IMG/VR virus record: IMGVR_UViG_3300028584_001240
From: a virus
Taxonomy: Duplodnaviria; Heunggongvirae; Uroviricota; Caudoviricetes
DNA length: 64,000 nt
Reading direction: 5' to 3' (one strand)
The notes under the pieces were generated by a model, which made no database searches, was not told the DNA's origin, and saw only the letters and a program-made list of their open reading frames with translations. Position numbers and translations under genes: made by a program. Positions 1,193-63,687 of the stretch are shown here, piece after piece (the stretch's first letter is position 1; each line of letters begins with the position of its first letter).

Positions 1193-1891
1193 TTATATTT
1201 TTGTCATTGCAATCAAAGAATTATAACGTGTAAAGTCTTCTGCATACAACTTTAATGACGCCAAAAAATCGTCAGCAATTAAAATATCTTTAATAGATGT
1301 ATGTTCCCACAAAAAATAGAAGTCTCGTAAATATGGCTGATAAAGCTCATTTAATCCATTTTCTTTCAAAAAAACTACATCACCCCTATCATAAATATAA
1401 TGATCAGAAAGATGTTGATAATTTTCATCACTCAGTGTAGGATCTTTATGGTTTTGAAATATCACTCTAACTCTCGTTAAATTACCAAACTTATCAAATG
1501 AAAATTCACTGCTAGCTCGTGTTTTATTTTCACATTCAAAACCACCCAGTTCTTGAGCCATTAAATAAAATCTTTCACGAAGATCATGAATACTAAGGTC
1601 ATCGGTATCAAATAATGGAACCAATGGCTCACCAACCCAAGCCAATATTTCATAATGGATATTTTCATAAAATGGACTTGTTTTGGTGGCCGAAACATTG
1701 ACAGTTATTGGCTGTTTACCAGACAAAAAAATTTGAACTCGTTCATCTTCGATAACACTATTAAATTCACTAATATTTGTCCCTGATTGGTCAAAAACAT
1801 TTTGCCACTTAGCATAAAAATTCTTCAAAATATCAGAAGACACATCTATAATATCGGCATCATCCACAATGATTGTTTTATTAATATTCAT
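1193..1891 (-). CDS. Hypothetical protein, tandem family 1, C-terminal MxxI tag (LIAMTKI)
   Basis: Shares FxFLWEHTSI...ExYxxLxxMxKI C-terminal block with three neighbours. Confidence 0.85.
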   Translation of the reverse strand: MNINKTIIVDDADIIDVSSDILKNFYAKWQNVFDQSGTNISEFNSVIEDERVQIFLSGKQPITVNVSATKTSPFYENIHYEILAWVGEPLVPLFDTDDLSIHDLRERFYLMAQELGGFECENKTRASSEFSFDKFGNLTRVRVIFQNHKDPTLSDENYQHLSDHYIYDRGDVVFLKENGLNELYQPYLRDFYFLWEHTSIKDILIADDFLASLKLYAEDFTRYNSLIAMTKI

Positions 1892-1895
1892 GATG

Positions 1896-2600
1896 TTAAA
1901 TAAGCTCCATTTGAATTAAGGCATGATATCGTTCAATATCTTTGATATACAGAAAAAAAGACTTATAAAAATCATCTGAAATCAAACTTTCTCTGATATT
2001 GGATCGCTGCCAAATAAAATATAGATTTCGTAAGTGTTGCAAGTTAGTCTTGCTATTGGAATTATTATAAATTAAAAAATGACTGTCATTGTGTTCATAT
2101 ATACGGTGAGCAAATGCTCTGGTAGCAATATTTTTATTTGTATTTTCAACCATGATAACAACTTCTTCAATATCAAGAGTTAAAAAATCAAAAGAAACTC
2201 TTACTCGAAATGTATTCTCATCAGGTATTTCTATTTTGAATAATCTATTCGCTAATGACCAAAAATTAGCATACATATCATCTGGTGAAAACTTTTCATT
2301 CCTTAATGTTGTTAAATTTTTAGGTGTCACATCTAAAGAAACAGTATAAATCATACTTTCATGGTTAATTTTTGAAAACATGGCTGTAAATGATAGTCTG
2401 AAAGGTCTATCATATGCTTCATCATAATCCGTTAGACGTAATAAATACATATCATTTTGGTATGATTTTTTAATTTCATCAAGATTAAAAGACACTGCTT
2501 CAAAAAATAAAGGCCATTTTAACATGAATACATTTAATTTTTCATGTAAAACAGCATAAATTCCCTCATCAATTTTAATTAAGTTTTGATCATTCATCAT
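1896..2600 (-). CDS. Hypothetical protein, tandem family 1, MxxI tag (LIQMELI)
   Basis: Paralog of neighbours (KW motif near N-terminus, IERYHALIQM at end). Confidence 0.85.
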   Translation of the reverse strand: MMNDQNLIKIDEGIYAVLHEKLNVFMLKWPLFFEAVSFNLDEIKKSYQNDMYLLRLTDYDEAYDRPFRLSFTAMFSKINHESMIYTVSLDVTPKNLTTLRNEKFSPDDMYANFWSLANRLFKIEIPDENTFRVRVSFDFLTLDIEEVVIMVENTNKNIATRAFAHRIYEHNDSHFLIYNNSNSKTNLQHLRNLYFIWQRSNIRESLISDDFYKSFFLYIKDIERYHALIQMELI

Positions 2601-3299
2601 TTAAATTTTTTCCATTTGTAACAAGGTGTGATAACGCTCAATGTCTGCTGTATATATTTTATAAGCTTCATAGAAATGAGGTGTATTAATAATCTCTTCT
2701 ATTGATGTATGTTCCCAAAGGAATTGAAAATTACACAAATTAACCACACCAGAACGAACCATATTATGTTTGCGTAATGCAACAATGTCATCAATTCTAT
2801 AAAGAGAATGCTCAACCCTCCTAGCAGCATGATTTTCGTAATGACTAAATGTCGTCTTAATACTTAACAAATCACCATCATGATCAAAAGCAAATATTAA
2901 TCTAGACGTTTCATTTTCATTTAATTCAGATCCAATAACGTTTTGATAAAATGTTTTAAAGTCATTGATGAGTTTTACAGGGTCAATGTCTTTTGTTTTA
3001 AAGTTGTTGATACTGTCAGCATCCACGCTCACATGAACATTGTAATAATGTTCAGTATAAAACCCAGAGCTAATATTTGCAGAAACAATAATAGCAAACT
3101 TCTTAAGCGTGTTAACATTAATGCCTGTTGTCTTCAAAACATGATGATAATCAGGATTCAATTCTGTTGTGGCTTCATCAAAGAAGATTTTATCATTAGC
3201 AAAAGCGAATTTCCACTTGCTATAAAATCGAGCAAGCACATTGTCTGCGTACGCTTTGATAATAGAAGTTTCTTCTGGTGTTAGATTAATCTGATTCAT
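2601..3299 (-). CDS. Hypothetical protein, tandem family 1, MxxI tag (LLQMEKI)
   Basis: Paralog; start moved to the ATG 6 nt after GGAG. Confidence 0.85.
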   Translation of the reverse strand: MNQINLTPEETSIIKAYADNVLARFYSKWKFAFANDKIFFDEATTELNPDYHHVLKTTGINVNTLKKFAIIVSANISSGFYTEHYYNVHVSVDADSINNFKTKDIDPVKLINDFKTFYQNVIGSELNENETSRLIFAFDHDGDLLSIKTTFSHYENHAARRVEHSLYRIDDIVALRKHNMVRSGVVNLCNFQFLWEHTSIEEIINTPHFYEAYKIYTADIERYHTLLQMEKI

Positions 3300-3360
3300 C
3301 AACATCTCCAAGATACATATATTTCACTATTATACTATAAAACACCAATAATAATCAACA

Positions 3361-3383
3361 AAAAAAGAGCCTAAGCTCTTTTT
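3361..3383. terminator. Intrinsic terminator; near-identical copy at about 4163-4184
   Basis: AAAAAAGAGC-CTAA-GCTCTTTT hairpin with A/T tracts. Confidence 0.7.
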
Positions 3384-3405
3384 AAATAGAAATCTCATTT
3401 ATATA

Positions 3406-4107
3406 TTAAATGCGTTCCATTTGAAGTAATGAATGATAACGCTCAATATTGTCACTGTATAGCGTGTAAGCATTAAAAAAGACAACTTCATTCATCACCG
3501 TTCGAATATTAGTATGATCCCATAGAAATGTAAAATTACGATAGTTAATGACACCCGTATGAACAAGATTGTAACCGCTTAATACATCTAAATCACTGAC
3601 ATGGTAGACAAAATGGTCTGCACGACAGGCTTCATCATTCTTATAAATAGTGAATGTCGTTTTAGCACTTAAAATCTTAGCGTCTTCATCAAAAACAAGG
3701 TATAAACCATAAGCATGTTTATCAACTTCTTTATAATTAAGAATAGATGTATAAAAGGTATGAAACTTATCACGAAGTTCAAGAGGGTTAAAATCATTTT
3801 TTTTAAAATCACGAACTCTATCACCATCAACAGCTACTGAAATGGTATAAACATTCTGTAAAGAATAAGCTTTCCCTAAGATACCTGTCACAACGATATG
3901 CATCTTTTTTAACGTTGATACATTAACAGCAATAACTTTCCATGTATACACCCCTTCACTTGGAAAATCAAGTTGATATTCATCAAAGTAGATTTTGTCA
4001 TTATAAAATGAATGCTGCCATTCCTTACAAAAGTTATTCAAAATTTCAGATGCTCGCTTTTTGAAGACTTCCACTTCTGTATGCTTTATTTCTTCAGTCA
4101 TAGTCAT
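3406..4107 (-). CDS. Hypothetical protein, tandem family 1, MxxI tag (LLQMERI)
   Basis: Close paralog of 2601..3299 (NVxTLKK, FLWxHTxI, IERYHxLLQMExI). Confidence 0.85.
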   Translation of the reverse strand: MTMTEEIKHTEVEVFKKRASEILNNFCKEWQHSFYNDKIYFDEYQLDFPSEGVYTWKVIAVNVSTLKKMHIVVTGILGKAYSLQNVYTISVAVDGDRVRDFKKNDFNPLELRDKFHTFYTSILNYKEVDKHAYGLYLVFDEDAKILSAKTTFTIYKNDEACRADHFVYHVSDLDVLSGYNLVHTGVINYRNFTFLWDHTNIRTVMNEVVFFNAYTLYSDNIERYHSLLQMERI

Positions 4108-4638: not shown

Positions 4639-6132
4639 TTACGCCATCATACTGCCGATATTGCCTTCTTCCGGCTCTGGTTCAGGGCGAGCCACAAACT
4701 GTTCGAAGTAACTGATGTGACCATTGATTACATCAAGTTTGTCTTGTGCATGTTCTTCCTTGGTTGCCAACTTACCACCAATCAAGTCAACAAGGTTGTC
4801 TTGACCACGAACTGCTTCAACAACCGCCTCCTGAGCCACTTTCATTTGGTCAAGGTAGAACAACACATTATGTTCACCGATCATCACAGTTGGAACATTA
4901 CGCAAGAACTCAATTAAACGCGGTGTCTCTTTGTAGTAATTAACGTGTGAAACCATACCCGGAATGGCAAGAATGTCATCTTTGTAATCAACATAAGCCT
5001 TTTCGATAATTTCGGCCATTTCTGGAATTTCCATACGGTATACGTTGTTATGTTTAACAAGAGCAAGAGCCAACATTTTTGGATCAACATTGTCTTTGTA
5101 AAGATTAAACACATCAACAGACATTTCCTGACGAAGATCATGGAAGCTTTCACGAACAAATTCATCAATGGTCGATTGTGGCTTACCTTTGAAGTTGATG
5201 TTTTTCACCAACACACCAAGGAAACGGTTAAAATCAAGACCACGATAAGCTACTGAGAAAATCGCACGACTTGTTGCACTATCAAAATCACCACTTGGCG
5301 TATTCAACAAGTCTTTCGAGCTAGCCAAAGACTGAATAAAGCACGCTTGTTTGTTCATTTCGATGCAGTAGCTGACAAGACTTTCATCACGAAACAACAC
5401 ACTGGTATCAATGTTATTGTCATAGATGAAATCACGCATGCCCCAGTCATCATCAACGCGGATGAACTCAGACAATTCGTGGCGAACTTCCATTTCTGCA
5501 AGCTCCGCAGCTTCTGGTTCGGTCACAGTAATTTCAACTTCACCAAAAAACGGCTTCATTGCACAGTTAACGTCATCGTAAACAAAGCCAACCTTAGACA
5601 AAGTGGTAATCATTTCGCGGTAAGTGCCTTGGAAGTGATAAGTCAGACCATCATCAGTTTCTAAACCAGTGCCAAGAGTGAAAGTGTTCAAAAGCACTTT
5701 ACTACCTTTTTTGTAAAGGTCTTCACCGGAAAACATCACAACCACTGGCAAAGTAACTGGTGAGTCAAATGTAGGGTTCAATCTATCGGCATAAATAGGT
5801 TTCAATAGTTTTGCTTCTTCAACTACTTTAAGGAAGTTTTCTACGGTGCCAAATTCTTCTTGAATAGCCACGTTGGTTTCAAGCGTGCCTGCCATGTCGT
5901 TAGTTTCAAACGATTCGATAATAGCGTCAATTTTAGCAGCAATTTCAGTGTTTTTCTCTTTTGCTTCATCAACCATTTCTTTCATAAATGCAAATTTAAA
6001 CAAAGAAGGGATAGCTTTAAAGCCACGGGAGAGGAAGTCTACTTCATTACGGTGTAGAACGAAATAGTTCTTAGCCATTTCTTTGGCCGTTTCAACACAG
6101 ATTTCTGGATATTGCACACGAGTAATAGTCAT
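4639..6132 (-). CDS. Hypothetical protein (497 aa), higher GC than neighbours
   Basis: Long ORF, AGGAG RBS, terminator at about 4601-4624. Confidence 0.85.
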   Translation of the reverse strand: MTITRVQYPEICVETAKEMAKNYFVLHRNEVDFLSRGFKAIPSLFKFAFMKEMVDEAKEKNTEIAAKIDAIIESFETNDMAGTLETNVAIQEEFGTVENFLKVVEEAKLLKPIYADRLNPTFDSPVTLPVVVMFSGEDLYKKGSKVLLNTFTLGTGLETDDGLTYHFQGTYREMITTLSKVGFVYDDVNCAMKPFFGEVEITVTEPEAAELAEMEVRHELSEFIRVDDDWGMRDFIYDNNIDTSVLFRDESLVSYCIEMNKQACFIQSLASSKDLLNTPSGDFDSATSRAIFSVAYRGLDFNRFLGVLVKNINFKGKPQSTIDEFVRESFHDLRQEMSVDVFNLYKDNVDPKMLALALVKHNNVYRMEIPEMAEIIEKAYVDYKDDILAIPGMVSHVNYYKETPRLIEFLRNVPTVMIGEHNVLFYLDQMKVAQEAVVEAVRGQDNLVDLIGGKLATKEEHAQDKLDVINGHISYFEQFVARPEPEPEEGNIGSMMA

Positions 6133-6264: not shown

Positions 6265-6392
6265 CCTAACAACATATACTTGGCCTTTGTAGCCTGACCT
6301 ATGCGGGTGCTTACGCGAGTCCTGTGTTCTCTTTTAAAGAGCAGGGGGACAAAAATCCCGGCTCTATTAGCTTACGCCAATTCTTTGTTAGT
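6265..6392 (-). ncRNA. Putative structured RNA motif, copy 1 (homolog at 7991..8092)
   Basis: GC-rich multi-stem fold (CTAACAA/TTGTTAG, TTGGC/GCCAA, GGGA/TCCC, CCTG/CAGG, CTCTT/AAGAG), followed by a terminator at about 6224-6248. Confidence 0.55.
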
Positions 6393-6894
6393 CATTATAG
6401 ACATCCAGCTTACGAAAGAGTTCAAATAATTCTTGATTTCCTTGTAAACGATCTAGAAAACTATTATCTTGACCATTAAACATTTCTAAGGTGACGAAGA
6501 ATTCTTCAATATAATAGAAAGTTTGACCAAAACTATTATGCTGAGATAAATAAGCATGTGATGTAACGCCAGTATTGGTTTCTAACAGAATGACCAAATC
6601 CTTTGTTTCACCATAATAAACAGCTACCAGACCATTTTCACCAGCTTCGGCCACCGCCTCAATAAACTCATCTTCAACTAATTCGTTAAAGATATCTTCT
6701 GTTTTGTCTTTATCAACATAGAAAATGAATGCACCATGATCTTGTGGTCTTGAAAATAGATCTTCCAAGTCAAATAGACTGAATACATCATTTACGTTAT
6801 CATCGGATACATCACCAAACACCATTGCCAGATCAGGCACTTTAAAACAATGCACTAAGCTGTCTAGTTTTGGATTTTGGATTTCATGAAACAT
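6388..6894 (-). CDS. Hypothetical acidic protein, paralog of 6907..7410
   Basis: Shared PDxxxxFGxVS, VDK, GxNxxVxVYxxGxKDLxIxxET motifs. Confidence 0.85.
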   Translation of the reverse strand: MFHEIQNPKLDSLVHCFKVPDLAMVFGDVSDDNVNDVFSLFDLEDLFSRPQDHGAFIFYVDKDKTEDIFNELVEDEFIEAVAEAGENGLVAVYYGETKDLVILLETNTGVTSHAYLSQHNSFGQTFYYIEEFFVTLEMFNGQDNSFLDRLQGNQELFELFRKLDVYND

Positions 6895-6906
6895 AATTAT
6901 TTTCCT

Positions 6907-7410
6907 TTATTCTTCTTCAATAGAAATTTCTTTCAACGCGGCCAATATTTTAGGAGCCTTACCAACATAATGATAGAAATTGGATTCTTTGTCGTTCATA
7001 AGATCTTTTGTTGGGTAAAAATGCGGAACCTCAACAAAATCATCAAGAATATCATGTTCACCTTTTAAATCACAGCCTGTCATAAAACCTGAAGTCTCCA
7101 TCCAAATAATCAAGTCTTTATCACCTAAGTGATAAACAACCACAAACGCATTATCACCACATTCATCAAGAGAGTCAACATATTCGTGATTCGTCAATAG
7201 TGTTATAACTCGTTCAGTTAACGATTTATCAACTAATGCAAGTTCAGCATCATGATCATAACTTTCTTCGAGAAATTTTTCAAGCTGTTCAACTGTAGTA
7301 ATGTCTAAGCTATTTTCACCTGAAACATTACCGAAAGCAATAGAAATATCAGGCTTTTTCAACAGACCAATCACATTATCAATTTTAAGATTTTTAATAA
7401 GTTCTGCCAT
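6907..7410 (-). CDS. Hypothetical acidic protein, paralog of 6388..6894
   Basis: Same motifs as 6388..6894; AGGGG RBS. Confidence 0.85.
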   Translation of the reverse strand: MAELIKNLKIDNVIGLLKKPDISIAFGNVSGENSLDITTVEQLEKFLEESYDHDAELALVDKSLTERVITLLTNHEYVDSLDECGDNAFVVVYHLGDKDLIIWMETSGFMTGCDLKGEHDILDDFVEVPHFYPTKDLMNDKESNFYHYVGKAPKILAALKEISIEEE

Positions 7411-11846: not shown

Positions 11847-12596
11847 TCAAATACTATACATAATCGCAGTATCTAATTCATTTTTAGTATAATCAATAAT
11901 TTTCTTATCGAAAGTATTATTAAACATGACAACTTCACTATAACTCATGAAGACTTTTTTAAGATAGATTCCTTGCTTATTCATTTTAAGAAAAATACCT
12001 AACACAAACCATGTCTTAATATTCTTATTAAATCCGAGCATATAATTATTAGGTGTACCAGTAAACTTTCCAAAAATGCCATAATGAGTTGATGCAATAA
12101 CAATTAATCCGGTTTCTTCACTTACCTTTGAAAAAACAGAATTTTTAACATTGTGATATTGTTGAATTAGAACCTTTCTAAGTTCTATGGCTAGACACAA
12201 TAATGCTACCGCATATAATATCTGAAAACTAATAATGGCGGGTATATGAGTTACTGTGCAAAATTTCAGCAGAAAATTTAAAATACAAATGACAACCACA
12301 AAAAAATAAAGAATTTTTGGAAGTATGTATTCAGTTTTTTTAATTCTAAAAGTTAAATAGTAAAATGAACTAACTAAATAAATTATACAAAAAATACTTA
12401 ATAATGAACTAATAAAACCAATAAACATTTGTAAATCAAAAGTTCTTGTTAAAATATTAACTGAGCTACATGATGTTATACAAGCTAAAATAACAACCAA
12501 TTTAGCAACATCATTGCTTTTAACAAAATTAAAAGCTCTAATAATTTCAATTTTGAATAACGGCCAAACTTGCAGCCATACCAAAAGTATTTTCAT
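11847..12596 (-). CDS. Multi-TM membrane protein with MxxI tag (TAIMYSI)
   Basis: About 4 hydrophobic helices; C-terminus resembles 36494..37141. Confidence 0.75.
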   Translation of the reverse strand: MKILLVWLQVWPLFKIEIIRAFNFVKSNDVAKLVVILACITSCSSVNILTRTFDLQMFIGFISSLLSIFCIIYLVSSFYYLTFRIKKTEYILPKILYFFVVVICILNFLLKFCTVTHIPAIISFQILYAVALLCLAIELRKVLIQQYHNVKNSVFSKVSEETGLIVIASTHYGIFGKFTGTPNNYMLGFNKNIKTWFVLGIFLKMNKQGIYLKKVFMSYSEVVMFNNTFDKKIIDYTKNELDTAIMYSI

Positions 12597-13576: not shown

Positions 13577-14224
13577 TTAATAAGATATCATACTAAGCAG
13601 ATCTTTACATCGTTTTTTATTATCAATTTTTTGACCTTGAAGGATAAGATTAAGATCAAAATGGTCATCTTTTACAATATCATTATTTGCATTATAAATA
13701 CAAGCCAACACAAAATCAGGTAAAATTTCAAATATGGTTTGTGTTCCATTTAAATCATAATCAACTCCATCTGTGGTGATTTTGACAAAATCATCTTCTA
13801 AAATTAGTTCAATATGATTACTATACCTATTATTTCCAGAACCATTGTAAGGTTTAAATGAATACAAGAAATCAAAACTAAATGATTTAAAAGTGAAATC
13901 GTTATTCAAGTAAAAAGCAAAGGTCAAGTAATAATGATTAACCGTTTTATCGACATTATTAATCTGGGAGAAAATAAACTCACTGTTGAATAATACTTTA
14001 GTCCTATTATTAATGTTTTGAAACATACCTAACTCTTGACCAGAGTTATTGACTAATCGACCATAAGACATGTTATGATCCAGTGGTGTAGAAAGAGACT
14101 CTTTCAAAGCGTCATAACCGTCTAAATCATTACGATTAAGCTTTTTGAGCCTAAATCCTTCTGTATAATAAGGAAATACGTCCTTAAATATAGCTGACAA
14201 ATCCATTCCATCTACAAAATACAT
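13577..14224 (-). CDS. Hypothetical protein with MxxI-type tag (LLSMISY)
   Basis: 215-aa ORF, translationally coupled to 14226. Confidence 0.8.
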   Translation of the reverse strand: MYFVDGMDLSAIFKDVFPYYTEGFRLKKLNRNDLDGYDALKESLSTPLDHNMSYGRLVNNSGQELGMFQNINNRTKVLFNSEFIFSQINNVDKTVNHYYLTFAFYLNNDFTFKSFSFDFLYSFKPYNGSGNNRYSNHIELILEDDFVKITTDGVDYDLNGTQTIFEILPDFVLACIYNANNDIVKDDHFDLNLILQGQKIDNKKRCKDLLSMISY

Positions 14225-50268: not shown

Positions 50269-50329
50269 GATGGTGGAACTCCTTGATGTTTAATGACCCT
50301 ATTATACAAGACTTAATAGCAATAGTCAA

Positions 50330-51118: not shown

Positions 51119-51130
51119 TTTATATTCCTA

Positions 51131-51832
51131 TTATAGATTGATCATTTGAACAACGGGAGAATCTTGAAATAAAAGATCATAGACATCTTTTTCAATTTTT
51201 GTAGCGGCATGAACAGTCATGAATTTACGTTTAAACGAAGGCCAATAAAATTCTTCAATCAAAACCTTCCTAACTGGCTCACCACCATATTTATCAGAAT
51301 CCGCATAAGCATGAAACCGTGCAGATGGTTCCAGCTTTCCTGTATTAATATTAAATAAAATTTTCATTGTCATTAAAAATGATATGTCATCGTTTGATTT
51401 TTTGACATCAGCAGAATAATCAATAAGATCTTCACCAGAAATATGAACGTTTTGAATCATGTCGTCTACATGCTGACTAGACAAACAAGCTTTCTTTCCA
51501 AAACAGAAAATGTTCATAAAGTTGAAATCATGATTAACTTCTTTAAGGATTTCATTAACATTTTCAAAGATGTCAGATCTAAAAATTAAAGGCATTTCTC
51601 TATGAGATTCTTTATCACGAGCAAGCATGATGAAAGATTCGAGCGACGCAATAATAAACCAATATTCATAATGTTTATAATTTTTTGAAAAAGTAACCAT
51701 CTGGATATTCGATCTCTCTAAATGATCCATCCTGTAAGTGGGATTGGTATTTCGTCTTAAACTGTTACGGAGAGACATATGAAAACCTCTAATAGATGGC
51801 AGTATATTATCATACCATAGGTTAAATATCAA
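51131..51832 (-). CDS. Hypothetical protein, family B, tag (VVQMINL)
   Basis: True start probably MSLRN; paralog of the pseudogene at 52700..52962. Confidence 0.8.
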   Translation of the reverse strand: MIFNLWYDNILPSIRGFHMSLRNSLRRNTNPTYRMDHLERSNIQMVTFSKNYKHYEYWFIIASLESFIMLARDKESHREMPLIFRSDIFENVNEILKEVNHDFNFMNIFCFGKKACLSSQHVDDMIQNVHISGEDLIDYSADVKKSNDDISFLMTMKILFNINTGKLEPSARFHAYADSDKYGGEPVRKVLIEEFYWPSFKRKFMTVHAATKIEKDVYDLLFQDSPVVQMINL

Positions 51833-51835
51833 TAA

Positions 51836-52684
51836 TTATATTAAAGACATGTCAATGACTTGCTTATAGTCATTAAAATTACTAACAAAGTCTTCAATAC
51901 TAGGTGTTTCAAGCTTGTTTGTTTTCATTATAGAATAATAAAAAATCACAGAGATATAATCACGCATATCAGGAATAGAATCATGTTCACTGAAGCTGAT
52001 AGAATGCAAAGGATCTGCACATTCGTGGTTAAGTCTGTAAGTGTCACCATTTTTTGACAATGAAGCACTGAACATTTTATTGGATTCAAAAATCGCGTAA
52101 TCTTGAGTTCCAATTATATCGAACATAGTTGCACTTCGATTTTTAATAAGCATCTTGAAGTCATCAACAAGCTTAAATGATGAACCATCTTTAATCAAAT
52201 TGAATACAAATCTTGAGTTTTCTGTGCATTCAATCTTTCGATTAGAAACCATACCAGAGAGTTCTGATTTTTGAGAAGCACTCAGATCTAAATCAAAATC
52301 TTCAAATTTTTTCAATTTTACTTCATTTACATTTTTATTTACTGAAATGTTTTCAACATACGATTCCAGAAATTGATTAGACAACTTAATGAAGTGTTCA
52401 ATATTGTCTATGTTAACAAATTTAAAGAAATCTATATTGGGAATAAAATAAAGAATAACATCATCTGGGATTTCTAGGTTTTCGTAATAAGACACTATCA
52501 TTCCAACGACAATATTATCAATCAATACATCGGCTCTGGTGTCTTCAAATTTTCTCCAATTGACAGTTACACTTAAATTTTTATTATTAAGCCGGTCTTC
52601 CAATGCTTTAATAAATGAATCCTTATGTCTGTAGATAGTAGGATTACCTATTTTTTTTAGATTAATTTCCTTAAAATTACTCAT
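51836..52684 (-). CDS. Hypothetical protein, family A, tag (VIDMSLI)
   Basis: GAGGA RBS; paralog motifs. Confidence 0.8.
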   Translation of the reverse strand: MSNFKEINLKKIGNPTIYRHKDSFIKALEDRLNNKNLSVTVNWRKFEDTRADVLIDNIVVGMIVSYYENLEIPDDVILYFIPNIDFFKFVNIDNIEHFIKLSNQFLESYVENISVNKNVNEVKLKKFEDFDLDLSASQKSELSGMVSNRKIECTENSRFVFNLIKDGSSFKLVDDFKMLIKNRSATMFDIIGTQDYAIFESNKMFSASLSKNGDTYRLNHECADPLHSISFSEHDSIPDMRDYISVIFYYSIMKTNKLETPSIEDFVSNFNDYKQVIDMSLI

Positions 52685-52699
52685 ATTTAAATCCTCAGT

Positions 52700-52962
52700 T
52701 TAAAGGTTAACCATTTGAACAACAGAAGAATCCAAGAAAGTGAGTTCACTTACCTTCTTTTCAATTTTTTGAGATCCATAAATAGACATGAAATCAATTT
52801 TAAATTAATTAACAAATATTCTTCTGCTGAAGACATCAAGAAATGATATTCATATCGCTTATCGTCTTTTTCGAAAACCACAGTTCTAATATTGGAAGAC
52901 CTGTTGTGATTGATTCGATAAGAAGGGTTTGTGTGATTTCTAATCAAAGCTTCGAAGAACAT
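52700..52962 (-). pseudogene. Internally deleted, frameshifted copy of the family B gene
   Basis: N-terminus MFFEALIRNHTNPSYRINH matches 51131 gene; another frame gives FKIDFMSIYGSQKIEKKVSELTFLDSSVVQMVNL-stop, matching its C-terminus. Confidence 0.8.
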
Positions 52963-53162
52963 AATTAATCCTCTAAAATTATTGAAGTATATTATCATAC
53001 TTAGAGAAAATAATCAATCATTACAACGTATTAAAAAATCAACTTTTTTAGTCATTCATCTCATGACATTCATTGTAAAATAACTATTTTTTTAATTGAA
53101 AAAGTCAACTATGTTAAAAAAACACAGTAACCATTATATTAAAGTCTAAATATCAACATTAA

Positions 53163-53960
53163 TTAAATGACAGACATCTCTACAATTTTCTTATAGTCAG
53201 ATAGGTTAGATAAATAATCTTCAAAAAGTGGACATTCCATATTAGTTTCAAGCATTACTGAGTAATAGAAAACTATGTCAGCAAAGTGCTTAATGTTTGG
53301 CAATGGCTCAGTTTCAGTAAATTCAAGACTATAAATAATGTTAGTCGTTGAATTATCTCGAATACAATATATGTCATCTTCTTTGATAATGATAACACTT
53401 AAAAGATTACTAAACCTTTTCATATCAAAAATATTTAGCGTATGGTTATGTATAGAATATTTAAAATCATCGACAATTTTGAATTCATCACCTTCTTTAA
53501 TCATCCGATAAACCAGATTACCCGTCTCATTAAAACAAATAGTTTCAGAGCATAGTGTGCCATAGAACTGCTTGTCTTCATGTTGAAGGTCAAAACGAAA
53601 GTCCAACAAACCTTTATGGGGTGGGTTGTCACTGTCTTTTAATACATTCAATGTAACGAGTGTATTTTTCAAAAGCTGTGAGGAATAGTCTAAAAATTGA
53701 GTGATTGAATCCATTTTACAATAATCAAAGAACGAATAATATGGAAAGAAATAAAGATACATGTCTTCGGGAAATGGCCTGTTTGCAAAAAAAGTGATAA
53801 TTTTGCCAACACGAACATTATCCACATTCACAATACCTTGTGTATCACCATGTTGAAGAGAATTGACAGTCACTACCGCATGATCATTAATAAGACGTTT
53901 CTTGAATGCATTCAAGAAGATATCAATGGTTTCTTGTGTAATCACTTGGCTTTTATTCAT
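53163..53960 (-). CDS. Hypothetical protein, family A, tag (IVEMSVI)
   Basis: GAGGA RBS; paralog motifs. Confidence 0.8.
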   Translation of the reverse strand: MNKSQVITQETIDIFLNAFKKRLINDHAVVTVNSLQHGDTQGIVNVDNVRVGKIITFFANRPFPEDMYLYFFPYYSFFDYCKMDSITQFLDYSSQLLKNTLVTLNVLKDSDNPPHKGLLDFRFDLQHEDKQFYGTLCSETICFNETGNLVYRMIKEGDEFKIVDDFKYSIHNHTLNIFDMKRFSNLLSVIIIKEDDIYCIRDNSTTNIIYSLEFTETEPLPNIKHFADIVFYYSVMLETNMECPLFEDYLSNLSDYKKIVEMSVI

Positions 53961-53969
53961 TTTAAATCC

Positions 53970-54407
53970 TCAGTAAAACATCCAAATAGTGCCTAGGTTC
54001 TTAAAGATCTTTTGAACTGCAGTATCTTCAAACAAAAGACCGGGAATACGTTTAACATCCGAAACGACAATATTACCCCATTTATCATAGACCAAACCAG
54101 TTTCAAAATAGTCAGGACGTTTAGGATCTGTAATCTTCGCAGCGTTGAAAACTTCGTCAACAGTAATCAATGTTTTTTCGCACGCAATGTGGTGTTCTTC
54201 ACAAACACTTGCTGCATTGTTTAAATAGTACCCACCATCATCAAACAGCTTGCGATCATACACATGATGAGCGTCAATTGCGGGTTTATCACAAAATATA
54301 CAGGTGTGATGATCCCTTTCAAAACAAGCAGTTTTAAAATCTTCTCGACTGAGTAACGTGTTCTCATCTATTTTTTGATGTTTCATTTTGTTCACCTTAA
54401 ATTTCAA
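53970..54407 (-). CDS. HNH endonuclease-like protein
   Basis: ERDxxxCxxC...DAHH...NAASVCEEHH. Confidence 0.75.
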   Translation of the reverse strand: MKFKVNKMKHQKIDENTLLSREDFKTACFERDHHTCIFCDKPAIDAHHVYDRKLFDDGGYYLNNAASVCEEHHIACEKTLITVDEVFNAAKITDPKRPDYFETGLVYDKWGNIVVSDVKRIPGLLFEDTAVQKIFKNLGTIWMFY

Positions 54408-55305
54408 TCATGTCTTGCAGCAGTAAATGTTCTTTCAAATTATTCATGTCATTGACGTGGACATTTTTTAATTTCAAAACAGCAACAATCATATTTTCAA
54501 TGTCAACAATTTCCGAATTTACAAATTCTTTATAGGTCAACTTAACCGTTTGATTCTGCATTTGCAATGTTATTTTAATATCATCCAGTTTTTTTTCTGA
54601 AAATAAATCAATGTTAATAGAAAAAATACTTTGTGGATTGATGACTGTGTGTTTTGCTTTACTTTCAATAATAAATTCTTTTGTTGAAATCTTTATGTCA
54701 AAGCACTCATGGACTAAATTATTTTTTTCAAAATAAATTCCATTTTTTTTAATCAAATTATAAATACTGTTATCATAATTTAATAGCTTATCTACTTTTT
54801 TAATCATTTGAAGCATGTGAGCTGTCAGCCAACTACATGAAACACCTTCATCCTTTACACCAGAATAATTATGGCACAATCTTTCAAACATCTCTTCTGC
54901 TGATAAGTCATGTCGATTGAAATCATTTAAACTCATATCAAAATATAAATTATTGGATTTGTTCGAAATATGGGGCAAAATATTAGAATGTTTATCGCCA
55001 TCATTAATGTGTTCAATCTTAATAGTCACTGTTGGATAAGTGTCTGCTGATATATTGAAAATAAAATGAACAGGAATATCTATCTTATTCATAATATTAG
55101 CTTCGGATTGAATTATCTTCAAGAAAGGTTCAATCCGTGTAAGATTAATCGTATAACTTTTTTTTGAATTTCGAATTTTTTTTGTGAGTGCTTTATAATC
55201 AATATTATGTAGATTGAATAAAGATGTTACTTCGGCATATTTCATTAATCTACTCCATAACTTAATAATGCCGATATTATAGCATAAAATGTGATTATTT
55301 TCCAT
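54397..55305 (-). CDS. Hypothetical protein, tag (LQDMIEI)
   Basis: True start probably MKYAE after GGAG. Confidence 0.75.
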   Translation of the reverse strand: MENNHILCYNIGIIKLWSRLMKYAEVTSLFNLHNIDYKALTKKIRNSKKSYTINLTRIEPFLKIIQSEANIMNKIDIPVHFIFNISADTYPTVTIKIEHINDGDKHSNILPHISNKSNNLYFDMSLNDFNRHDLSAEEMFERLCHNYSGVKDEGVSCSWLTAHMLQMIKKVDKLLNYDNSIYNLIKKNGIYFEKNNLVHECFDIKISTKEFIIESKAKHTVINPQSIFSINIDLFSEKKLDDIKITLQMQNQTVKLTYKEFVNSEIVDIENMIVAVLKLKNVHVNDMNNLKEHLLLQDMIEI

Positions 55306-55326
55306 TCATTTCTAATCTATTATTGG

Positions 55327-55884
55327 TTAAATTTTAACCATATCATGTAAAACGAGCAGATTTTTAAAATTTCGTTCACCTTTGCGATATAACTCAATAA
55401 GACTGTTATCAACAGCACCTTCCATTTCAGTAATGTATTTACCGTAAATCATATAAGGAATGATAGAGGGGGCAATATCTTCATAAATATTACCATTGTC
55501 TTGAAGATTTCTTCTTGAATAGAAATAAAATGACTTCCAGTAAAGTGAATCTTTGAACAATATTTCTAAATCATACGGTTTAAAGATAAAATCTATATCA
55601 ATAGAGTCACGAACATTTAGACTAACTGTATAAGCCAACACTTCACCATTAACAGTTACCTCTTTTCCTGATGACATAAACCTAAAATGTTCAGTAATGA
55701 TACATTCAGAATCATCTAATAATTGAGAATCAACTAGAATTTGTTTTAACGTCTTGTTATTGATCAGGAGCTTAATATCTCCTTTATCATTCAAAGTCAC
55801 AGTGAATATTTTTTTCATTCTTTCAATAATGCTGTATGGAATAGACTTGCTTAATGTAATAGCCATGTGTAATTGACTCCCCAA
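55327..55884 (-). CDS. Hypothetical protein, tag (LHDMVKI)
   Basis: About 180-aa ORF. Confidence 0.75.
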   Translation of the reverse strand: MGSQLHMAITLSKSIPYSIIERMKKIFTVTLNDKGDIKLLINNKTLKQILVDSQLLDDSECIITEHFRFMSSGKEVTVNGEVLAYTVSLNVRDSIDIDFIFKPYDLEILFKDSLYWKSFYFYSRRNLQDNGNIYEDIAPSIIPYMIYGKYITEMEGAVDNSLIELYRKGERNFKNLLVLHDMVKI

Positions 55885-55986
55885 TAATAGATCTTATATT
55901 GTAATACATTGCAAGGATGGTTGTAAACAAAAATTTTAATAAAAAAAGACATCCGAAGATATCTCTTTTTATAATTAAATAAAAAA

Positions 55987-56541
55987 TTAATTATGAACAG
56001 TTGCTTTACTAATATTAATACAACTATCAACGATTTCCCAACATTCATCTGTGGTTAACTGTTTGCTAAATGGACATACAGCTTCTGCATTTTTCTCTTT
56101 AATAACCGAAGCATTTTCAAGCACTACAGCCCCACGATATAAACGAGTAATAGCAAAGTCTGTCGATATTCTATGAAATTCATGACTTAACGATGTATAG
56201 CTGTCACCTGTTCTAAAATGTTGAACACTTTCTGGAATAACAATCACATTGACTTTTTGTGGTTTGACTATTTTTTCTTGTTTGCAATTTTCTTCAATCA
56301 TAATGTAATCACTAAGCCCAGAATGTATAGTAAATAATTCTTGTGTGAGTTTTCCAGCCATGATAGTTGAAATAAAGTCATATCTATGATTATGGATTTC
56401 TTCTACGTTGACTATTGGGTTAACATCTGGATGATAGAAATGCATTCTTAAATTATTGTCTAATTTTAGCTGTACAAAACCTAAACCAAAGAAATGTATC
56501 ATTTGATGGTTTTTTCTTAAAAAATCGGTATCTAAATACAT
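55987..56541 (-). CDS. Cupin-like (double-stranded beta-helix) protein
   Basis: IHNHRYDFISTIMAG...GDSY.....EFHRI. Confidence 0.6.
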   Translation of the reverse strand: MYLDTDFLRKNHQMIHFFGLGFVQLKLDNNLRMHFYHPDVNPIVNVEEIHNHRYDFISTIMAGKLTQELFTIHSGLSDYIMIEENCKQEKIVKPQKVNVIVIPESVQHFRTGDSYTSLSHEFHRISTDFAITRLYRGAVVLENASVIKEKNAEAVCPFSKQLTTDECWEIVDSCINISKATVHN

Positions 56542-56619
56542 ATCTTCACCTTTATTTATTTATCTTATTATATAATAAGATTGCTTTAATTCAATAACAT
56601 CTTAAAAAGAAAGTTTTTC

Positions 56620-57291
56620 TTAAATGGTCAGCATTTTCAGTAAGAAAAGCTGCTCAGAAAACTCATCTGATGGTTGTGTAACATCTAAATTCATTACATC
56701 TCCTACATTGTAATAATTTGACAAATTTTTTAATGAATTAAAAATAAACTCTTTCTTTTTTACTTTAATTTTACTATCAACAAAACGACAAATAATATCA
56801 ATTTTATCAATAAACTTATCAGCAGAGTAGAATTGTGCTGTTATTTTTATATTGTCATAGTTTGTTTTTGATGGAAATAATTTATTCATAATTGAATTAT
56901 TATAAACTTTTTCAAAATAAAATTTTGTTTCTATTAAAAGATGGACATCTGTATTATACAATGAATAGAATGCGATTAGATTGTTAAAATAAAGATCCAA
57001 ATTCATATCAAACTTGCTGAAATTTGTTATATTTTGTAATTCTGTCGAGTAATGTCGATGAACAACATGAAAAAGCTCATAAGTCGGACCATTACTTTTC
57101 ACAAAGAATACACCATTCTTAACGTCATCATCATGCACATGAGTGTTCAAAATAATTGAAGATGTTTTAACAGTGGAAGAATAAATACTATTCATTACAT
57201 TTTTTATGCTTGGTTTTAAAGACTGTATAGCACTTTTTGATAAATATAGCTTTTTAATATTTTTGTCAACTTTTGTTTTAATATCAACCAT
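56620..57291 (-). CDS. Hypothetical protein, tag (LLKMLTI); paralog of 57321
   Basis: NxIYSS, FxxVHxHY, FDMxLDLYxNN shared. Confidence 0.8.
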   Translation of the reverse strand: MVDIKTKVDKNIKKLYLSKSAIQSLKPSIKNVMNSIYSSTVKTSSIILNTHVHDDDVKNGVFFVKSNGPTYELFHVVHRHYSTELQNITNFSKFDMNLDLYFNNLIAFYSLYNTDVHLLIETKFYFEKVYNNSIMNKLFPSKTNYDNIKITAQFYSADKFIDKIDIICRFVDSKIKVKKKEFIFNSLKNLSNYYNVGDVMNLDVTQPSDEFSEQLFLLKMLTI

Positions 57292-57320
57292 AGTATTTAA
57301 TCCTTTCCAGTCTAATATTC

Positions 57321-57995
57321 TTAAATAGTTGCCATATGCAACAGTATTGTGCCTTTTTTAAACTCTTCTTCTGTTTGTGTGTAATCGAGATTAATCTCAT
57401 CAGGTATGTTGAACAATTCTTTCAAATGGGTTATAGACTGCTCAAAAAAATGATGAACATCTTTTTTGTTTGTTACAATCATTTTACCATACGAAGACTG
57501 ACAAGATAGATAAAATACACCCGTTAGATCTTTATGAAAATAAATTTCCAATTGAATGTGAATATTATTACTAGCAACTTTTGGTATAAATAATTTACTC
57601 AGCAGCCCACTATTGAAAATATCATCCAAAAATAGTCTTGTATCTACAAAAAAATAAGGATTGTTGGCATACACTCCACATAAACTTAGAAAATTGTTAA
57701 TATATAAATCTAAATCCATATCAAAGTTTTGAAAACTGATCTTATGGTTATTCGGTGTTGGGTAATGTTTATGGACGAATTTAAACATTGTATCAGTTTC
57801 ATTCTCTTTTTTATAAAAAATGATGCCATCTTCTTCTTCGGACGTTCTATCGTAGTTATCCATATCAGTTAATTTTGCTGAACTTGAATAAATAGTGTTT
57901 AATGATTTTAAAAAAACTGGCATCAATCTTGTTACAACTGCTTGAGAAATCGGTGGCTTCAGAGACATAGGTAAAACTCCAAAATAATTATACAT
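57321..57995 (-). CDS. Hypothetical protein, tag (LLHMATI); paralog of 56620
   Basis: Same motifs as 56620; start probably MSLKP. Confidence 0.8.
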   Translation of the reverse strand: MYNYFGVLPMSLKPPISQAVVTRLMPVFLKSLNTIYSSSAKLTDMDNYDRTSEEEDGIIFYKKENETDTMFKFVHKHYPTPNNHKISFQNFDMDLDLYINNFLSLCGVYANNPYFFVDTRLFLDDIFNSGLLSKLFIPKVASNNIHIQLEIYFHKDLTGVFYLSCQSSYGKMIVTNKKDVHHFFEQSITHLKELFNIPDEINLDYTQTEEEFKKGTILLHMATI

Positions 57996-58668
57996 TCAAC
58001 ATTTGAAGAACAGTAGAGTCTTCTGGTGTAAGATCTTCTTTCTTTTTGCCAATCTTTGAAAAAATAACACTCTCAAAAAGATCTGCAATAGACTCTTCAT
58101 AATCATTATATTCAACATAACCAGAAACAATTCTGTAATCTATTTCAATTGTTCTCTTTTGTAGATTAACAACTGGATATAATCTGATTTCATAGTTATG
58201 TCCTAAATCATCTATATACGCATCTAATAGGAAACAATAGTTATTCCCATCATACTGAGCATAAAAAAGAATGTCATCTATCGTCTCTGGTCGTTTTACA
58301 CCTGTATGTTTGTTCCCATAAGCAAACGTATAAATAGCATGAACCTCATCGTAGGCCCGAGACATTAACTGAAGGATTGTTTCTTTTCCTGTGATGTTGA
58401 AGTGTTTCTCAAAATCCACGAAAGCTTCTTTCCAGCCAGAATCAATAATAAAAATGTCATCTTCGTGTTCTCTGTCTTCGGCTGAAAAGAAAAAAGTTTC
58501 ATTACATAAAATGTATGAATACTCATCTGCAAATTTAAAATGTAAAAAGGTGTCAGGATGATTCCTTTTCATTTCTATATATGTTACAGGCAAAGAAGAC
58601 ACAGTATTCTCTTTAACAATGGCTAAAAGTTCTTGTGTGATGGCTTCTTTGCTGAGTGTGGTTCTCAT
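57988..58668 (-). CDS. Hypothetical protein, tag (VLQMLNV); paralog of 58665
   Basis: PETxxD.....YDGxNY shared. Confidence 0.8.
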   Translation of the reverse strand: MRTTLSKEAITQELLAIVKENTVSSLPVTYIEMKRNHPDTFLHFKFADEYSYILCNETFFFSAEDREHEDDIFIIDSGWKEAFVDFEKHFNITGKETILQLMSRAYDEVHAIYTFAYGNKHTGVKRPETIDDILFYAQYDGNNYCFLLDAYIDDLGHNYEIRLYPVVNLQKRTIEIDYRIVSGYVEYNDYEESIADLFESVIFSKIGKKKEDLTPEDSTVLQMLNV

Positions 58669-59369
58669 TTATCTTCCTTTTTATTATCGTTTGTATTAAG
58701 TTTCCAAAAATTTTCTTGTGTTTCACCTTTCGGCGGTGTCACATATTTACTAATAAAACCAGCTTTCATTTCTTCAAAGTTGGCATACTGATCATGCCCA
58801 ATGAAATATCTAAATTTAAAAAAGAAGGTTTTCGTTTCAATATTTAACATAGGATCGGCAAGTATCATCATTTTTGTGTAATAGTTATCATCACCCACAA
58901 CCGCTCTCAAAAAGTAGTTGTCACCATCATAATACATCGAATCAATCATATCTTCCAAGGTTTCTGGTTTAGTTGAAGTGATCTCAACACCCAAAAATGT
59001 TTTGTAGAAGTCACTTAACTCTTCATACTGTTGTCGTAACTCCACCAGAAAAGAATCGGACATTGTTAAAAAATTATTCATATAATTAATAATGCTAGAT
59101 CGGTCATAATAAATCAGATTAAACTCATCAGGAGATTCATTCTCGTCCAATTCGGCAGATCGCATCAAATTATAGTAATCTTCTGTGATCTCACCATCTT
59201 TACTCAGATTGAAATAAATTTCGTACAAGCGTTCGTTAGGACAACTTAAACTTTGCAAAATAATATCTTTACCCATCGCCTTAACATTATATTCAAGTGC
59301 AGATAAAACTTTTTCGAAAATTTCATTTGGGATGTTATCTGGTATGTTATTCAATTTTACATCATTCAT
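58665..59369 (-). CDS. Hypothetical protein, paralog of 57988 lacking the tag
   Basis: KPETLEDMIDSMYYDGDNY; ends NDNKKEDK. Confidence 0.8.
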   Translation of the reverse strand: MNDVKLNNIPDNIPNEIFEKVLSALEYNVKAMGKDIILQSLSCPNERLYEIYFNLSKDGEITEDYYNLMRSAELDENESPDEFNLIYYDRSSIINYMNNFLTMSDSFLVELRQQYEELSDFYKTFLGVEITSTKPETLEDMIDSMYYDGDNYFLRAVVGDDNYYTKMMILADPMLNIETKTFFFKFRYFIGHDQYANFEEMKAGFISKYVTPPKGETQENFWKLNTNDNKKEDK

Positions 59370-60037
59370 ATTTTCACCATTGCTAATAGAGTATGATCTC
59401 TTAATGTTAAGTCTTCTAATTTTTTATTAAGTGGCTCACAAGCATAGGCTACTAACAAATGGTTAATAACTTCTTCTGGTGTTCCTGAGTATAAGTTCCC
59501 ATCAATTCTTGAATTTACAAAAAAATGTGGTTCAAATCTTGTGAAATCATCATTAAGTATAAACCTAACAATAATTTTGCTATCCAAACAATGGGTAGGC
59601 ATAAATGGTTTAAGTTCTTTTGAAAATTTAAGAATATCATTGGGTGTGTTAATTTTAAAATCAACTGAATTATAATTGTTATCTGTTGCATATTGCCTAT
59701 TATCAAACAAAAAGTAATTGACAAATTTAAGTTTATTTGCAATGACTTCGATTTGGTTTAATATTTGTCTATCAAGTTCACCCTTTACACCAACATTAAA
59801 TACGCTGTCAGCCTGTTGAATTTTTGATTCACTACCAAATACAAGACATTTTTTCTCGCTTTCCATAACAAGAATCATTTTCATATCCATACCGATGTAA
59901 AGTCCTTTGAAAATCAATTGAATATTATGATAAGACGTATTCACTGGCGATACTGTCAACTCATAATTTTCTTTATCATACACAAGTCGTTTTTTTAACA
60001 CCTGCATATAATAATTTCTTTGATATTCTGAACTCAT
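59366..60037 (-). CDS. Hypothetical protein, tag (LLAMVKI)
   Basis: GAGGA RBS and TATAAT promoter upstream. Confidence 0.8.
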   Translation of the reverse strand: MSSEYQRNYYMQVLKKRLVYDKENYELTVSPVNTSYHNIQLIFKGLYIGMDMKMILVMESEKKCLVFGSESKIQQADSVFNVGVKGELDRQILNQIEVIANKLKFVNYFLFDNRQYATDNNYNSVDFKINTPNDILKFSKELKPFMPTHCLDSKIIVRFILNDDFTRFEPHFFVNSRIDGNLYSGTPEEVINHLLVAYACEPLNKKLEDLTLRDHTLLAMVKI

Positions 60038-61122: not shown

Positions 61123-61202
61123 TTATGTCATAAGCGTTAAAAGACCACCACTTGGTGGTTTTTTTGTTTATGGTATACTATAGTAAAAACAAAGAGATTT
61201 AA

Positions 61203-62114: not shown

Positions 62115-62235
62115 CAAAATAAAACAACCTTCGGGTTGTTTTTTATTTCTTGAAATTTTTCTTGTTTTTTGATATACTGAAAACTCGTTAAAACCATATT
62201 GATATAGGTGAAAACGCTACAAGCGAGGTTCATTG

Positions 62236-63021
62236 ATGTATTCCATTAAAACTGATTTTAAACAAGACACTATTACAGTTAATGAGTCAGATAAGGAAAA
62301 ATTAATAGAAGTGTCTATTGATGTCGCCAAACATGTCTGTAAAGTTGATAGCAATGCTTATGCTTTTGAATCCGAAGCTAGACTAAGTGTTTTTGATAAG
62401 ATCAATGGAAACATATACTCTATCATGGTATATGCAAAGAGTCCCTTTAATGAATTATGTTTTACATACTCGTTCAGATATGATTCGAATGATACCTTAT
62501 TACTGTACAGCAGCGATGTATTTTTCTCTGACTGGTCCTTATATAATGATTTACCATTAAAAAACACCTATCCTGACTCCATTTATATTAATTTCTATGA
62601 TGATTTTAAAATTGATTCGTATGAAGTTAGCTATCGTAGTGTTATTCGTCATTATATCTACGAAAATGAAGAGTATGATACCACATCCGTTGTCGATTTT
62701 AATTATAAGCTTAAAAACGAAACAATAACCTTAAATATGGAGTATAATTACTGGGATCAGCACACAAACCCAGAAAATTATTTTAGCTTAACCAAACTCA
62801 ATGTTAACGAAGATCAATTAGCACAGGATAAGATATTTCTTAATCTGTTGAATTATATTGAAATGGGCAGTGTTGCAATGACTGACCTATTTGATTATAT
62901 GGTTACCCAAAAAGTAAAGACAGCGGAAGGATTTAAAGCTGCCTATGAGTACTTTACAAATATTGAAGATAAAGAAATGGTAAAAAATAAAATATCTGTT
63001 ATAAAAATGGAAAATATTTAA
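62236..63021 (+). CDS. Hypothetical protein, tag (VIKMENI)
   Basis: GAGG RBS; about 261 aa. Confidence 0.8.
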   Translation: MYSIKTDFKQDTITVNESDKEKLIEVSIDVAKHVCKVDSNAYAFESEARLSVFDKINGNIYSIMVYAKSPFNELCFTYSFRYDSNDTLLLYSSDVFFSDWSLYNDLPLKNTYPDSIYINFYDDFKIDSYEVSYRSVIRHYIYENEEYDTTSVVDFNYKLKNETITLNMEYNYWDQHTNPENYFSLTKLNVNEDQLAQDKIFLNLLNYIEMGSVAMTDLFDYMVTQKVKTAEGFKAAYEYFTNIEDKEMVKNKISVIKMENI

Positions 63022-63042
63022 AAATAGACAACCGCTACTTTT

Positions 63043-63687
63043 TTAGATATTCACCATGTTCAATAATTCAAAATATTGATCAACATTATCATAGGTGATC
63101 TCATCACAAATGGATAGGTTGCCTTTCTCGTGAAACATCTGCTGCAGGTAAAGTACACAAAATTCATAATTATGAAGTATTTTAAAAGACTTATGGATTA
63201 AGTTTTGATTGTGATATCCAAAGTAAGTATAAAGCGGTTCACCATCAGTATCACTTTGAACTTTTATAAATAAATAAGCTCCCCTAATATCATGAGTACA
63301 GCTTGACCATTGTTCATATAAATCATTTTCTTTTGTAAAATAAAACATGTGCTCAATGACATAGTTCACATGAAGTTTAAATTTATCTGCAATAACATTC
63401 TTTTGTTCATGAATAGGTTCGAATTTTTCTCTTAAATCACTTTCAATGTCATGTTTAAAGACAAAACCATTCATTTTCATTGTATCAAAGAAATCTCTAT
63501 TATCTTTAACCGTCATTTTGATAATAAATACCCACCGTTCAGGTTCGTCAATAATCGACATGGTTAAGTAAGGCACATTAAACACGATATTAGTGGTATC
63601 TGTCGAGAGTTTTTTATATCGACTATGATTAAGTTCAGCAGTCTGTTCAAACAATGTCGAACTGACAATATTACAGAGTTCATCCAT
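63043..63687 (-). CDS. Hypothetical protein, tag (LLNMVNI)
   Basis: 214-aa ORF. Confidence 0.8.
   Translation of the reverse strand: MDELCNIVSSTLFEQTAELNHSRYKKLSTDTTNIVFNVPYLTMSIIDEPERWVFIIKMTVKDNRDFFDTMKMNGFVFKHDIESDLREKFEPIHEQKNVIADKFKLHVNYVIEHMFYFTKENDLYEQWSSCTHDIRGAYLFIKVQSDTDGEPLYTYFGYHNQNLIHKSFKILHNYEFCVLYLQQMFHEKGNLSICDEITYDNVDQYFELLNMVNI

Follow-up and report, generated by a model that had tools for sequence, protein, structure and literature searches.

The BID domains of Bartonella are recognition modules of the type IV secretion system (T4SS). For substrates of the type I secretion system (T1SS) of the protease/HasA class, Ghigo and Wandersman are said to have defined in 1994 a signal composed of an amphipathic helix and an extreme four-residue terminal motif. 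The T1SS-secreted effectors of Rickettsiales include the Ank and TRP families, and in Orientia dozens of paralogous effectors take this route (PMC4315096, PMC10225607). In Xanthomonadales, the X-Tfe effectors are recognized by the T4SS through a module termed XVIPCD (PMC8740702). The signals of the Dot/Icm (type IVB) system of Legionella and Coxiella comprise a RalF-type terminal hydrophobic residue, an E-block, and a C-terminal helix bound by an adaptor (LvgA, FxxxLxxxK) (PMC7251119), and effectors bearing transmembrane segments also use the Dot/Icm route (PMC11602083). Here, we describe a short C-terminal motif, termed the tag, shared by 20 proteins (the carriers) encoded in a 64,000-nucleotide stretch of DNA filed as the virus record IMGVR_UViG_3300028584_001240 and referred to in full as the window. 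The tag plausibly directs its carriers to a single machine for export or docking.

A tag at the free C-terminus

The window is densely coded (~32% GC) and contains 72 non-nested open reading frames (ORFs) of at least 90 aa. Counting back from the last residue as position -1, methionine is found at -4 in 21 of the 72, where about 2 would be expected (binomial P(X>=21) ~1e-15), as a first-pass annotation of this DNA had estimated. Each of the other positions from -1 to -15 holds methionine in 0 to 4 ORFs, and the residue makes up 2.9% of the proteins overall. Ile is the final residue in 20 of the 72 ORFs, and Leu, Val, and Ile predominate at -7. Twenty of the 21 ORFs are those that the annotation had listed, with coordinates, strands, and endings that all hold; the 21st, at 24058-25959 (633 aa, ending ...KMSVM), looks like a chance match. 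The pattern [LIVMF]xxMxx[IVLFY]-stop closes 19 of the 72 window ORFs and 23 of 99 ORFs in four related assemblies. It closes none of the 1,655 ORFs in a control set of 83 unrelated genomes, in which AT-richness is lower (41-49% GC) than in the window.

The tag is a short and strictly C-terminal feature of the protein. A 16-column position-specific scoring matrix built on the last 16 residues scores highly at true C-termini, and very few of 17,239 internal positions are carrier-like. Moreover, the conserved Leu, Val, and Ile positions at -7, -6, and -1 are written in mixed codons (TTG, TTA, CTG, CTA, ATT, GTT, and others), so conservation acts on the protein, as had been proposed. The same density of carriers is seen in a 69-kb stretch of a sister species that lies to the left of the window, where methionine stands at -4 in 24 of 75 ORFs; across both stretches, just a few further proteins have one or two extra residues. 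Carriers account for about one quarter of the genes in the stretch, and the tag itself is real and robust.

Anatomy of the tag

When 31 BLAST-defined carrier families (from the window, its left flank, and the 69 kb of the sister species) are anchored at their C-termini, column information rises above the 99% null only at about -21 to -1. Hydrophobic columns are found at -21, -14, -9, -7 (90%), -6, -4, -3 (61%), and -1 (mostly Ile), with methionine at -4 in ~96% of weighted families; acidic columns lie at -15, -11, and -5 and basic columns at -19 and -12. From -8 to -20, Asp and Glu make up 23% of carrier residues compared with 13% in non-carriers, peaking at -15 and -11, and Gly only 1.5%. The last 7 residues are 64% hydrophobic and contain neither Pro nor Gly. 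Many tails begin with an N-cap and acidic patch of the form [DE]-L-[ST]-x-[DE], or alternatively [DE]-x-Phi-x-[RD]-Y, and lead into the core pattern Phi(-7)-Phi(-6)-x-M(-4)-Phi(-3)-x-I(-1)-COOH, where Phi is a hydrophobic residue.

AlphaFold2 models were made for two carrier families, A and D, represented by 3406-4107 (minus strand, LLQMERI) and 15787-16485 (minus strand, IYRMVNI), and in both the helix extends to the final residue. A family A profile restricted to the final 50 residues matches other families weakly, and over their final ~15 residues only. The tag is therefore a single amphipathic alpha-helix of ~15-21 residues (3-5 turns) with a fixed end, and not a domain. In the model of family A, an alpha+beta body is followed by a helical tail, and the best-conserved ~50-residue tail region is assigned a predicted local distance difference test (pLDDT) value of just 35-55. 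A tail that is at once the best-conserved part of the protein and modeled with low confidence fits a segment that needs a partner.

Conservation of the tag and divergence of the carriers

Syntenic stretches are available from three further species (L001; L099; and L083/L100 with its extension), and orthologues in all four species keep the tag. Between the window and L083, carrier bodies are 41% identical and carrier tails (last 16 residues) 61%, whereas the bodies and tails of non-carriers are 69% and 63% identical. The corresponding values for L001 are 68% and 78% for carriers and 91% and 90% for non-carriers. Carrier bodies therefore evolve about twice as fast as neighboring genes, and their tails are better kept than the bodies to which they are attached, which places selection on the motif and supports the first-pass interpretation.

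Family A illustrates this divergence. Its four window members form a tandem paralog array on the minus strand (1193-1891, LIAMTKI; 1896-2600, LIQMELI; 2601-3311, LLQMEKI; and the modeled 3406-4107) and share only 21-38% identity with each other. Copy number in the family varies across the four species (4, 4, 2, and 2), and the two observations together indicate rapid gene birth, death, and divergence. A first metagenome scan with family A gave no match, and 14 relatives were found among 1.84 billion representative proteins. All full-length relatives are ~230 aa long and end in ...Y-[HN]-x-L-[LIV]-x-M-x-x-I, and none of the 14 has the tag in a fused or internal form. Outside this lineage no carrier family was found, and related DNA is seen only in metagenome or run assemblies.

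The carrier proteins

Stripped of their tails, the carriers fall into at least 16 sequence families in the window by BLAST and phmmer, and into 31 when the sister species is included. In HHalign comparisons of all 120 family pairs, none reaches a probability of 30% and the median is 0.2%, with shallow alignments limiting sensitivity; adding the tails back still links no families, and a comparison of A1 with A2 gives a probability of 0.1%. No carrier belongs to a Pfam or NCBIfam family, the latter being empty for the 10 proteins queried, and an Atlas feature search with carrier 51836-52684 yielded weak or no leads. As had been noted at first pass, the carriers are small (given there as 180-300 aa, measured here as 185-302 aa), lie on both strands, and include soluble and four-transmembrane proteins; most have a negative net charge. 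None of the 20 has a Sec-type N-terminus, which is found in at least 8 non-carriers. Likewise, the recognizable genes of the window (MCP/HAMP, TilS, NadE, an inverse autotransporter, endonuclease I, HPF, and three tRNAs) are all without the tag, so that neither signal-peptide proteins nor recognizable enzymes are found among the carriers.

Two carriers are predicted to have four transmembrane segments arranged as two hairpins. The first (11847-12596, minus strand, TAIMYSI) keeps its tag in the L083, L099, and L100 orthologues, and the second (36494-37141, LIEMNAI) is encoded on the plus strand. In both, the tag follows an even number of membrane passes and would therefore lie in the cytoplasm if the N-terminus does. 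Family D contributes a second member besides the modeled one (14226-14945, minus strand, LHAMKEV), and a further carrier lies at 13577-14224 (minus strand, LLSMISY). Also on the minus strand are 51131-51832 (VVQMINL), the family B carriers 51836-52684 (VIDMSLI) and 53163-53960 (IVEMSVI), 54397-55305 (LQDMIEI), 55327-55884 (LHDMVKI), the family C carriers 56620-57291 (LLKMLTI) and 57321-57995 (LLHMATI), 57988-58668 (VLQMLNV), and 59366-60037 (LLAMVKI), which belongs to a "DLTxxD" subclass. The last two carriers are 62233-63021 (plus strand, VIKMENI) and 63043-63687 (minus strand, LLNMVNI).

Two minus-strand variants with one extra residue, 43899-44507 (LFEMLKMT) and 50330-51118 (family B, LIEMALIS), and a pseudogene had been reported together with the carriers, and all three are present as described. 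The pseudogene, a frameshifted minus-strand remnant at 52700-53013 related to 51131-51832, still encodes ...SSVVQMVNL. Carrier 57988-58668 also has a paralog without the tag (58665-59369), whose tail is instead rich in Lys and Asp and which is a candidate natural control.

Comparison with known C-terminal signals

The Dot/Icm signals share several features with the tag. Like the tag, which is confined to -21 to -1, they lie in the last ~20-35 residues of proteins that lack Sec signals. A hydrophobic residue is needed at -3 or -4, where the tag has its methionine at -4 and is 61% hydrophobic at -3, and an acidic cluster lies ~10-17 residues from the end, matched in the tag by the 23% Asp and Glu at -8 to -20; a literal EExxE is not general among the carriers, and the likeness is one of resemblance only. 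Furthermore, Dot/Icm substrates number in the hundreds, are unrelated to each other, and include transmembrane-hairpin proteins, and an amphipathic helix can be bound by an adaptor of the coupling complex. However, Legionella signals are degenerate, whereas the tag follows a near-fixed consensus with Met exactly at -4 and Ile at -1. No Dot/Icm gene (DotL/IcmO, DotM, IcmS/W, DotB, DotO, and others) was found in the 64-kb window or the 69 kb of the sister species, and the carriers differ from Dot/Icm effectors in being small, uniform, and free of eukaryote-like domains.

T1SS signals are similar to the tag in being uncleaved, in lying at the extreme C-terminus of acidic substrates without Sec signals, and in combining a helix with a short hydrophobic end. 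The known terminal motif, however, is an acidic residue followed by hydrophobic ones (e.g., DVIV) and not MxxI, substrates with four transmembrane segments are unexpected for this route, and no ATP-binding cassette (ABC), membrane fusion protein, or TolC genes were seen in the DNA examined. XVIPCD and BID provide a third comparison, as each is a conserved C-terminal module found on unrelated effectors and read by the coupling protein. Unlike the tag, which spans ~15-21 residues and is invisible to HHalign, these modules are folded domains of ~100-120 residues that can be detected by profile.

The tag as an export signal

Our preferred reading, held tentatively and at somewhat less than probable, is that the tag serves as a Sec-independent C-terminal signal for the export or translocation of an effector-like repertoire. 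In this model, the tail helix would label a large and quickly diversifying collection of small lineage-specific proteins, which are candidate effectors. It would be bound in the cytoplasm by a receptor belonging to a single secretion machine, through its hydrophobic face, the invariant methionine, and the free C-terminus. This role could fall to a type IV coupling-protein complex or adaptor or, with lower likelihood, to a type I ABC exporter. The invariant methionine, the fixed distance to the stop, the restriction to free C-termini, the exclusion of Sec substrates, and the fast-evolving bodies suggest that the helix and the chain end are read together by some factor. We infer from these properties that the carriers would be exported and which kind of machine would read the tag. 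Moreover, the repertoire looks effector-like, with tandem paralog arrays of shifting copy number, a pseudogene, and families restricted to the lineage.

Several observations weigh against an export signal. No recognizable gene for a T1SS, T4SS, or type VI secretion system is present in ~127 kb of DNA from the window and the flank of the sister species. In the sister species, the gene whose position corresponds to a suggested DotL-like gene ~51 kb to the left of the window gives no Pfam match to a type IV coupling protein. A search for DotH/IcmK in the five genomes with the best TilS matches gave no match there or in the control genomes and counts neither way. The carriers are uniform in size and lack eukaryote-like domains, unlike known effector sets, and we know of no T4SS or T1SS signal that is so stereotyped or that has an invariant methionine. 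In the model of family D, an alpha+beta body with three C-terminal helices, the tail helices have pLDDT values of 70-86, so for some carriers the tail may be just part of the fold. Additionally, the A and D models, both of ~232 aa, share one order of elements (helix, 4-stranded sheet, helices, 3-4 strands, helix, and three C-terminal helices), and judging from these predictions part of the carrier set may be one very diverged superfamily.

The likeness of the two models is the basis of an alternative in which all carriers descend from one ancient, hyper-diverged paralog superfamily with a ~230-aa fold, in which a tandem of helix and 4-stranded sheet (cystatin/PepSY/BLIP-like) would precede a helical cap at the C-terminus. 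The tag would then be an inherited structural or self-association helix with no separate reader. We consider this doubtful. The 120 family pairs have no profile similarity with or without tails, anchored conservation ends at about -21, and a structural helix would not normally keep an invariant methionine and an exact stop position while the core strands diverge beyond recognition. Foldseek finds no match to the family A model in the PDB at E<=0.001, and the best match in an Atlas shape search, a PepSY-like tandem (template-modeling (TM) scores 0.40/0.59), falls within the range that the search tool itself labels common arrangements. A predicted homodimer of family A scores 0.24 against a mark of 0.42 and counts neither way. 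Finally, the four-transmembrane carriers cannot have the proposed fold over their full length. The claim of the first-pass annotation that carrier bodies are mutually dissimilar thus stands for sequences and profiles and is weakened for structure by the shared length and topology of A and D; the single diverged fold that it had named as the case against its own proposal may apply to the soluble carriers and not to those with four transmembrane segments. The alternatives also overlap in part, as one superfamily of exported proteins would satisfy both the export and the one-fold readings.

Much of the evidence for a reader would equally fit a partner that stays inside the cell. In this alternative, the tag docks its carriers to one cytoplasmic partner, which may be an adaptor or scaffold, a chaperone, an AAA+ protease that reads a C-degron, or a compartment or particle into which cargo is packaged, precedents being the C-terminal cargo-loading peptides of encapsulins and C-terminal degrons. 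The fixed register at the free end, the invariant methionine, the constraint on the tail beyond that on the body, and the low-confidence tail of family A are accommodated as well by docking as by export, and the lack of an export machine in ~127 kb favors it. However, none of the known degrons or cargo peptides matches the motif. The GSL-type consensus of encapsulin cargo is absent, and PHROG, viral_contigs, and phage-record searches found no shell, capsid, or phage-like gene. A compartment with more than 100 cargo types would also be without precedent, and fast divergence, orphan status, and the exclusion of Sec substrates better fit exported proteins that interact with a host. An intracellular docking tag is, on balance, rather unlikely. 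The common partner or docking device first proposed for the tag is upheld as far as the tag goes, a short free-end motif on many dissimilar families and absent from Sec and housekeeping proteins, and lacks its counterpart in that no partner or machine was found in the ~127 kb.

A more radical reading is an undescribed addressing system in which a dedicated receptor, unrelated to those of the T1SS and T4SS, would read the helix and its carboxyl end through Met(-4) and feed at least 100 interchangeable small proteins into a new export or packaging device of an unclassified host-associated lineage. We regard such a system as unlikely.

The organism that carries the tag

The replicon is a small bacterial chromosome of ~1.85 Mb and 32% GC from an uncultured organism. 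The protein of carrier 15787-16485 is found on a contig of 1,851,360 bp, and the sister species is represented by a JGI contig of 1,859,102 bp. Shine-Dalgarno motifs peak at -14 to -9 upstream of start codons. A phage or giant-virus origin was considered and rejected on the basis of this peak and of the 1.85-1.86 Mb contigs that carry these genes, and the description of the DNA at first pass as an element or replicon is likewise wrong. Consistent with a bacterial chromosome, PHROG matches are absent except for one T5orf172 protein, family A has no relative in viral_contigs, and a conserved orphan protein found no match in phage records.

Nearly identical DNA is present in metagenomes from groundwater, freshwater, food-related sources, and peat, as well as in organism-labeled runs. 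About half of the sampled words of window positions 50001-60000 are present in one organism-labeled run, and two more hold fractions of 0.13-0.15; none of the public runs listed as holding the stretch is an RNA run. The organism-labeled runs hint at a eukaryote-associated or co-cultured lifestyle, and the bacterium is probably host-associated and Gram-negative. Together with the small genome, these runs were counted in favor of an export signal.

The same runs bear on another possibility, namely that the tag is a short linear motif read by the host, acting at one host site after delivery into a eukaryotic cell, e.g., as the ligand of a domain that binds hydrophobic C-termini. A free C-terminus that ends in Ile, Val, Leu, or Tyr resembles the P0 position of PDZ-type ligands. 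However, the third-from-last residue, which defines the PDZ classes, is not conserved and may be V, E, T, S, I, K, N, A, or L, and to our knowledge no eukaryotic motif has Met at -4. Export by another signal would still be required. Some effectors do end in motifs that the host reads, CaaX boxes being one example (PMC13081727), and we consider such a motif here very unlikely.

TilS is at most 36% identical to its counterparts across 401 gammaproteobacterial genomes. The glutamine-dependent NAD synthetase NadE (48595-50268) shares at most ~44% identity with its matches, which come from several phyla. The best of them are from Acidobacteriota and Bacteroidota and not from Proteobacteria, and either gene transfer or a deep-branching lineage may account for this. 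Most genes of the window and of L082, L083, and L122-L126 belong to no Pfam, NCBIfam, or PHROG family, and these orphans include genes that are 82-99% conserved between species (4639-6132, 347-1108, and L082:9903-10742). This preponderance of genes without a family extends over at least 127 kb, an unusually large share of orphans for a bacterial chromosome.

Genes and sequences around the carriers

Many carrier genes stand in closely packed arrays that share one orientation, and a few directly adjoin or overlap a neighbor. No carrier-specific upstream k-mer or promoter motif was found; among non-carrier genes, 27 of 51 have a TAnAAT box 15-60 nt upstream, as do 6 of the 20 carrier genes. In the sister species, ~25-35 kb to the left of the window, three genes among the carrier arrays (L123:2719-3555, L124:16573-17412, and L123:1122-2246) encode a 278-aa protein with the AlaRS catalytic core family only (tRNA-synt_2c), a Thg1-family protein, and a PcfJ-family protein.

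Lys-rich tails are found on many proteins without the tag, including 347-1108, 16555-17334, 17459-18607, 23103-23951, 25962-27671, 37731-38150, and others, with endings such as ...GKDKDKGKQ, ...KKEKKSKINGPS, and ...KLKRKKKLKL. These tails could be a second signal or merely AAA-rich ends in an AT-rich genome. Near the family A array, two adjacent and very acidic paralogs of ~168 aa (6388-6894 and 6907-7410; net charge -25 and -21) are conserved in L001 and L083/L100, with one copy seen in L099; Atlas features for 6388-6894 give weak SUKH/SMI1-like or chaperone-like leads (score 0.84). Elsewhere, a 496-aa orphan (33760-35250) and a 95-aa protein (44597-44884) are similar by BLAST, and the shorter may be a fragment copy.

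Implications

The C-terminal signals of T4SS and T1SS substrates are notoriously degenerate, such that effector prediction needs machine learning, and structures of receptors with their signals are scarce. If at least 100 candidate substrates carry the tag, an effector-like repertoire could be listed nearly free of error from sequence alone. In that case, the tag would also offer a defined peptide for receptor pull-down and co-folding, and the lineage would provide a natural experiment on how a set of cargo proteins diversifies while its address label stays fixed.

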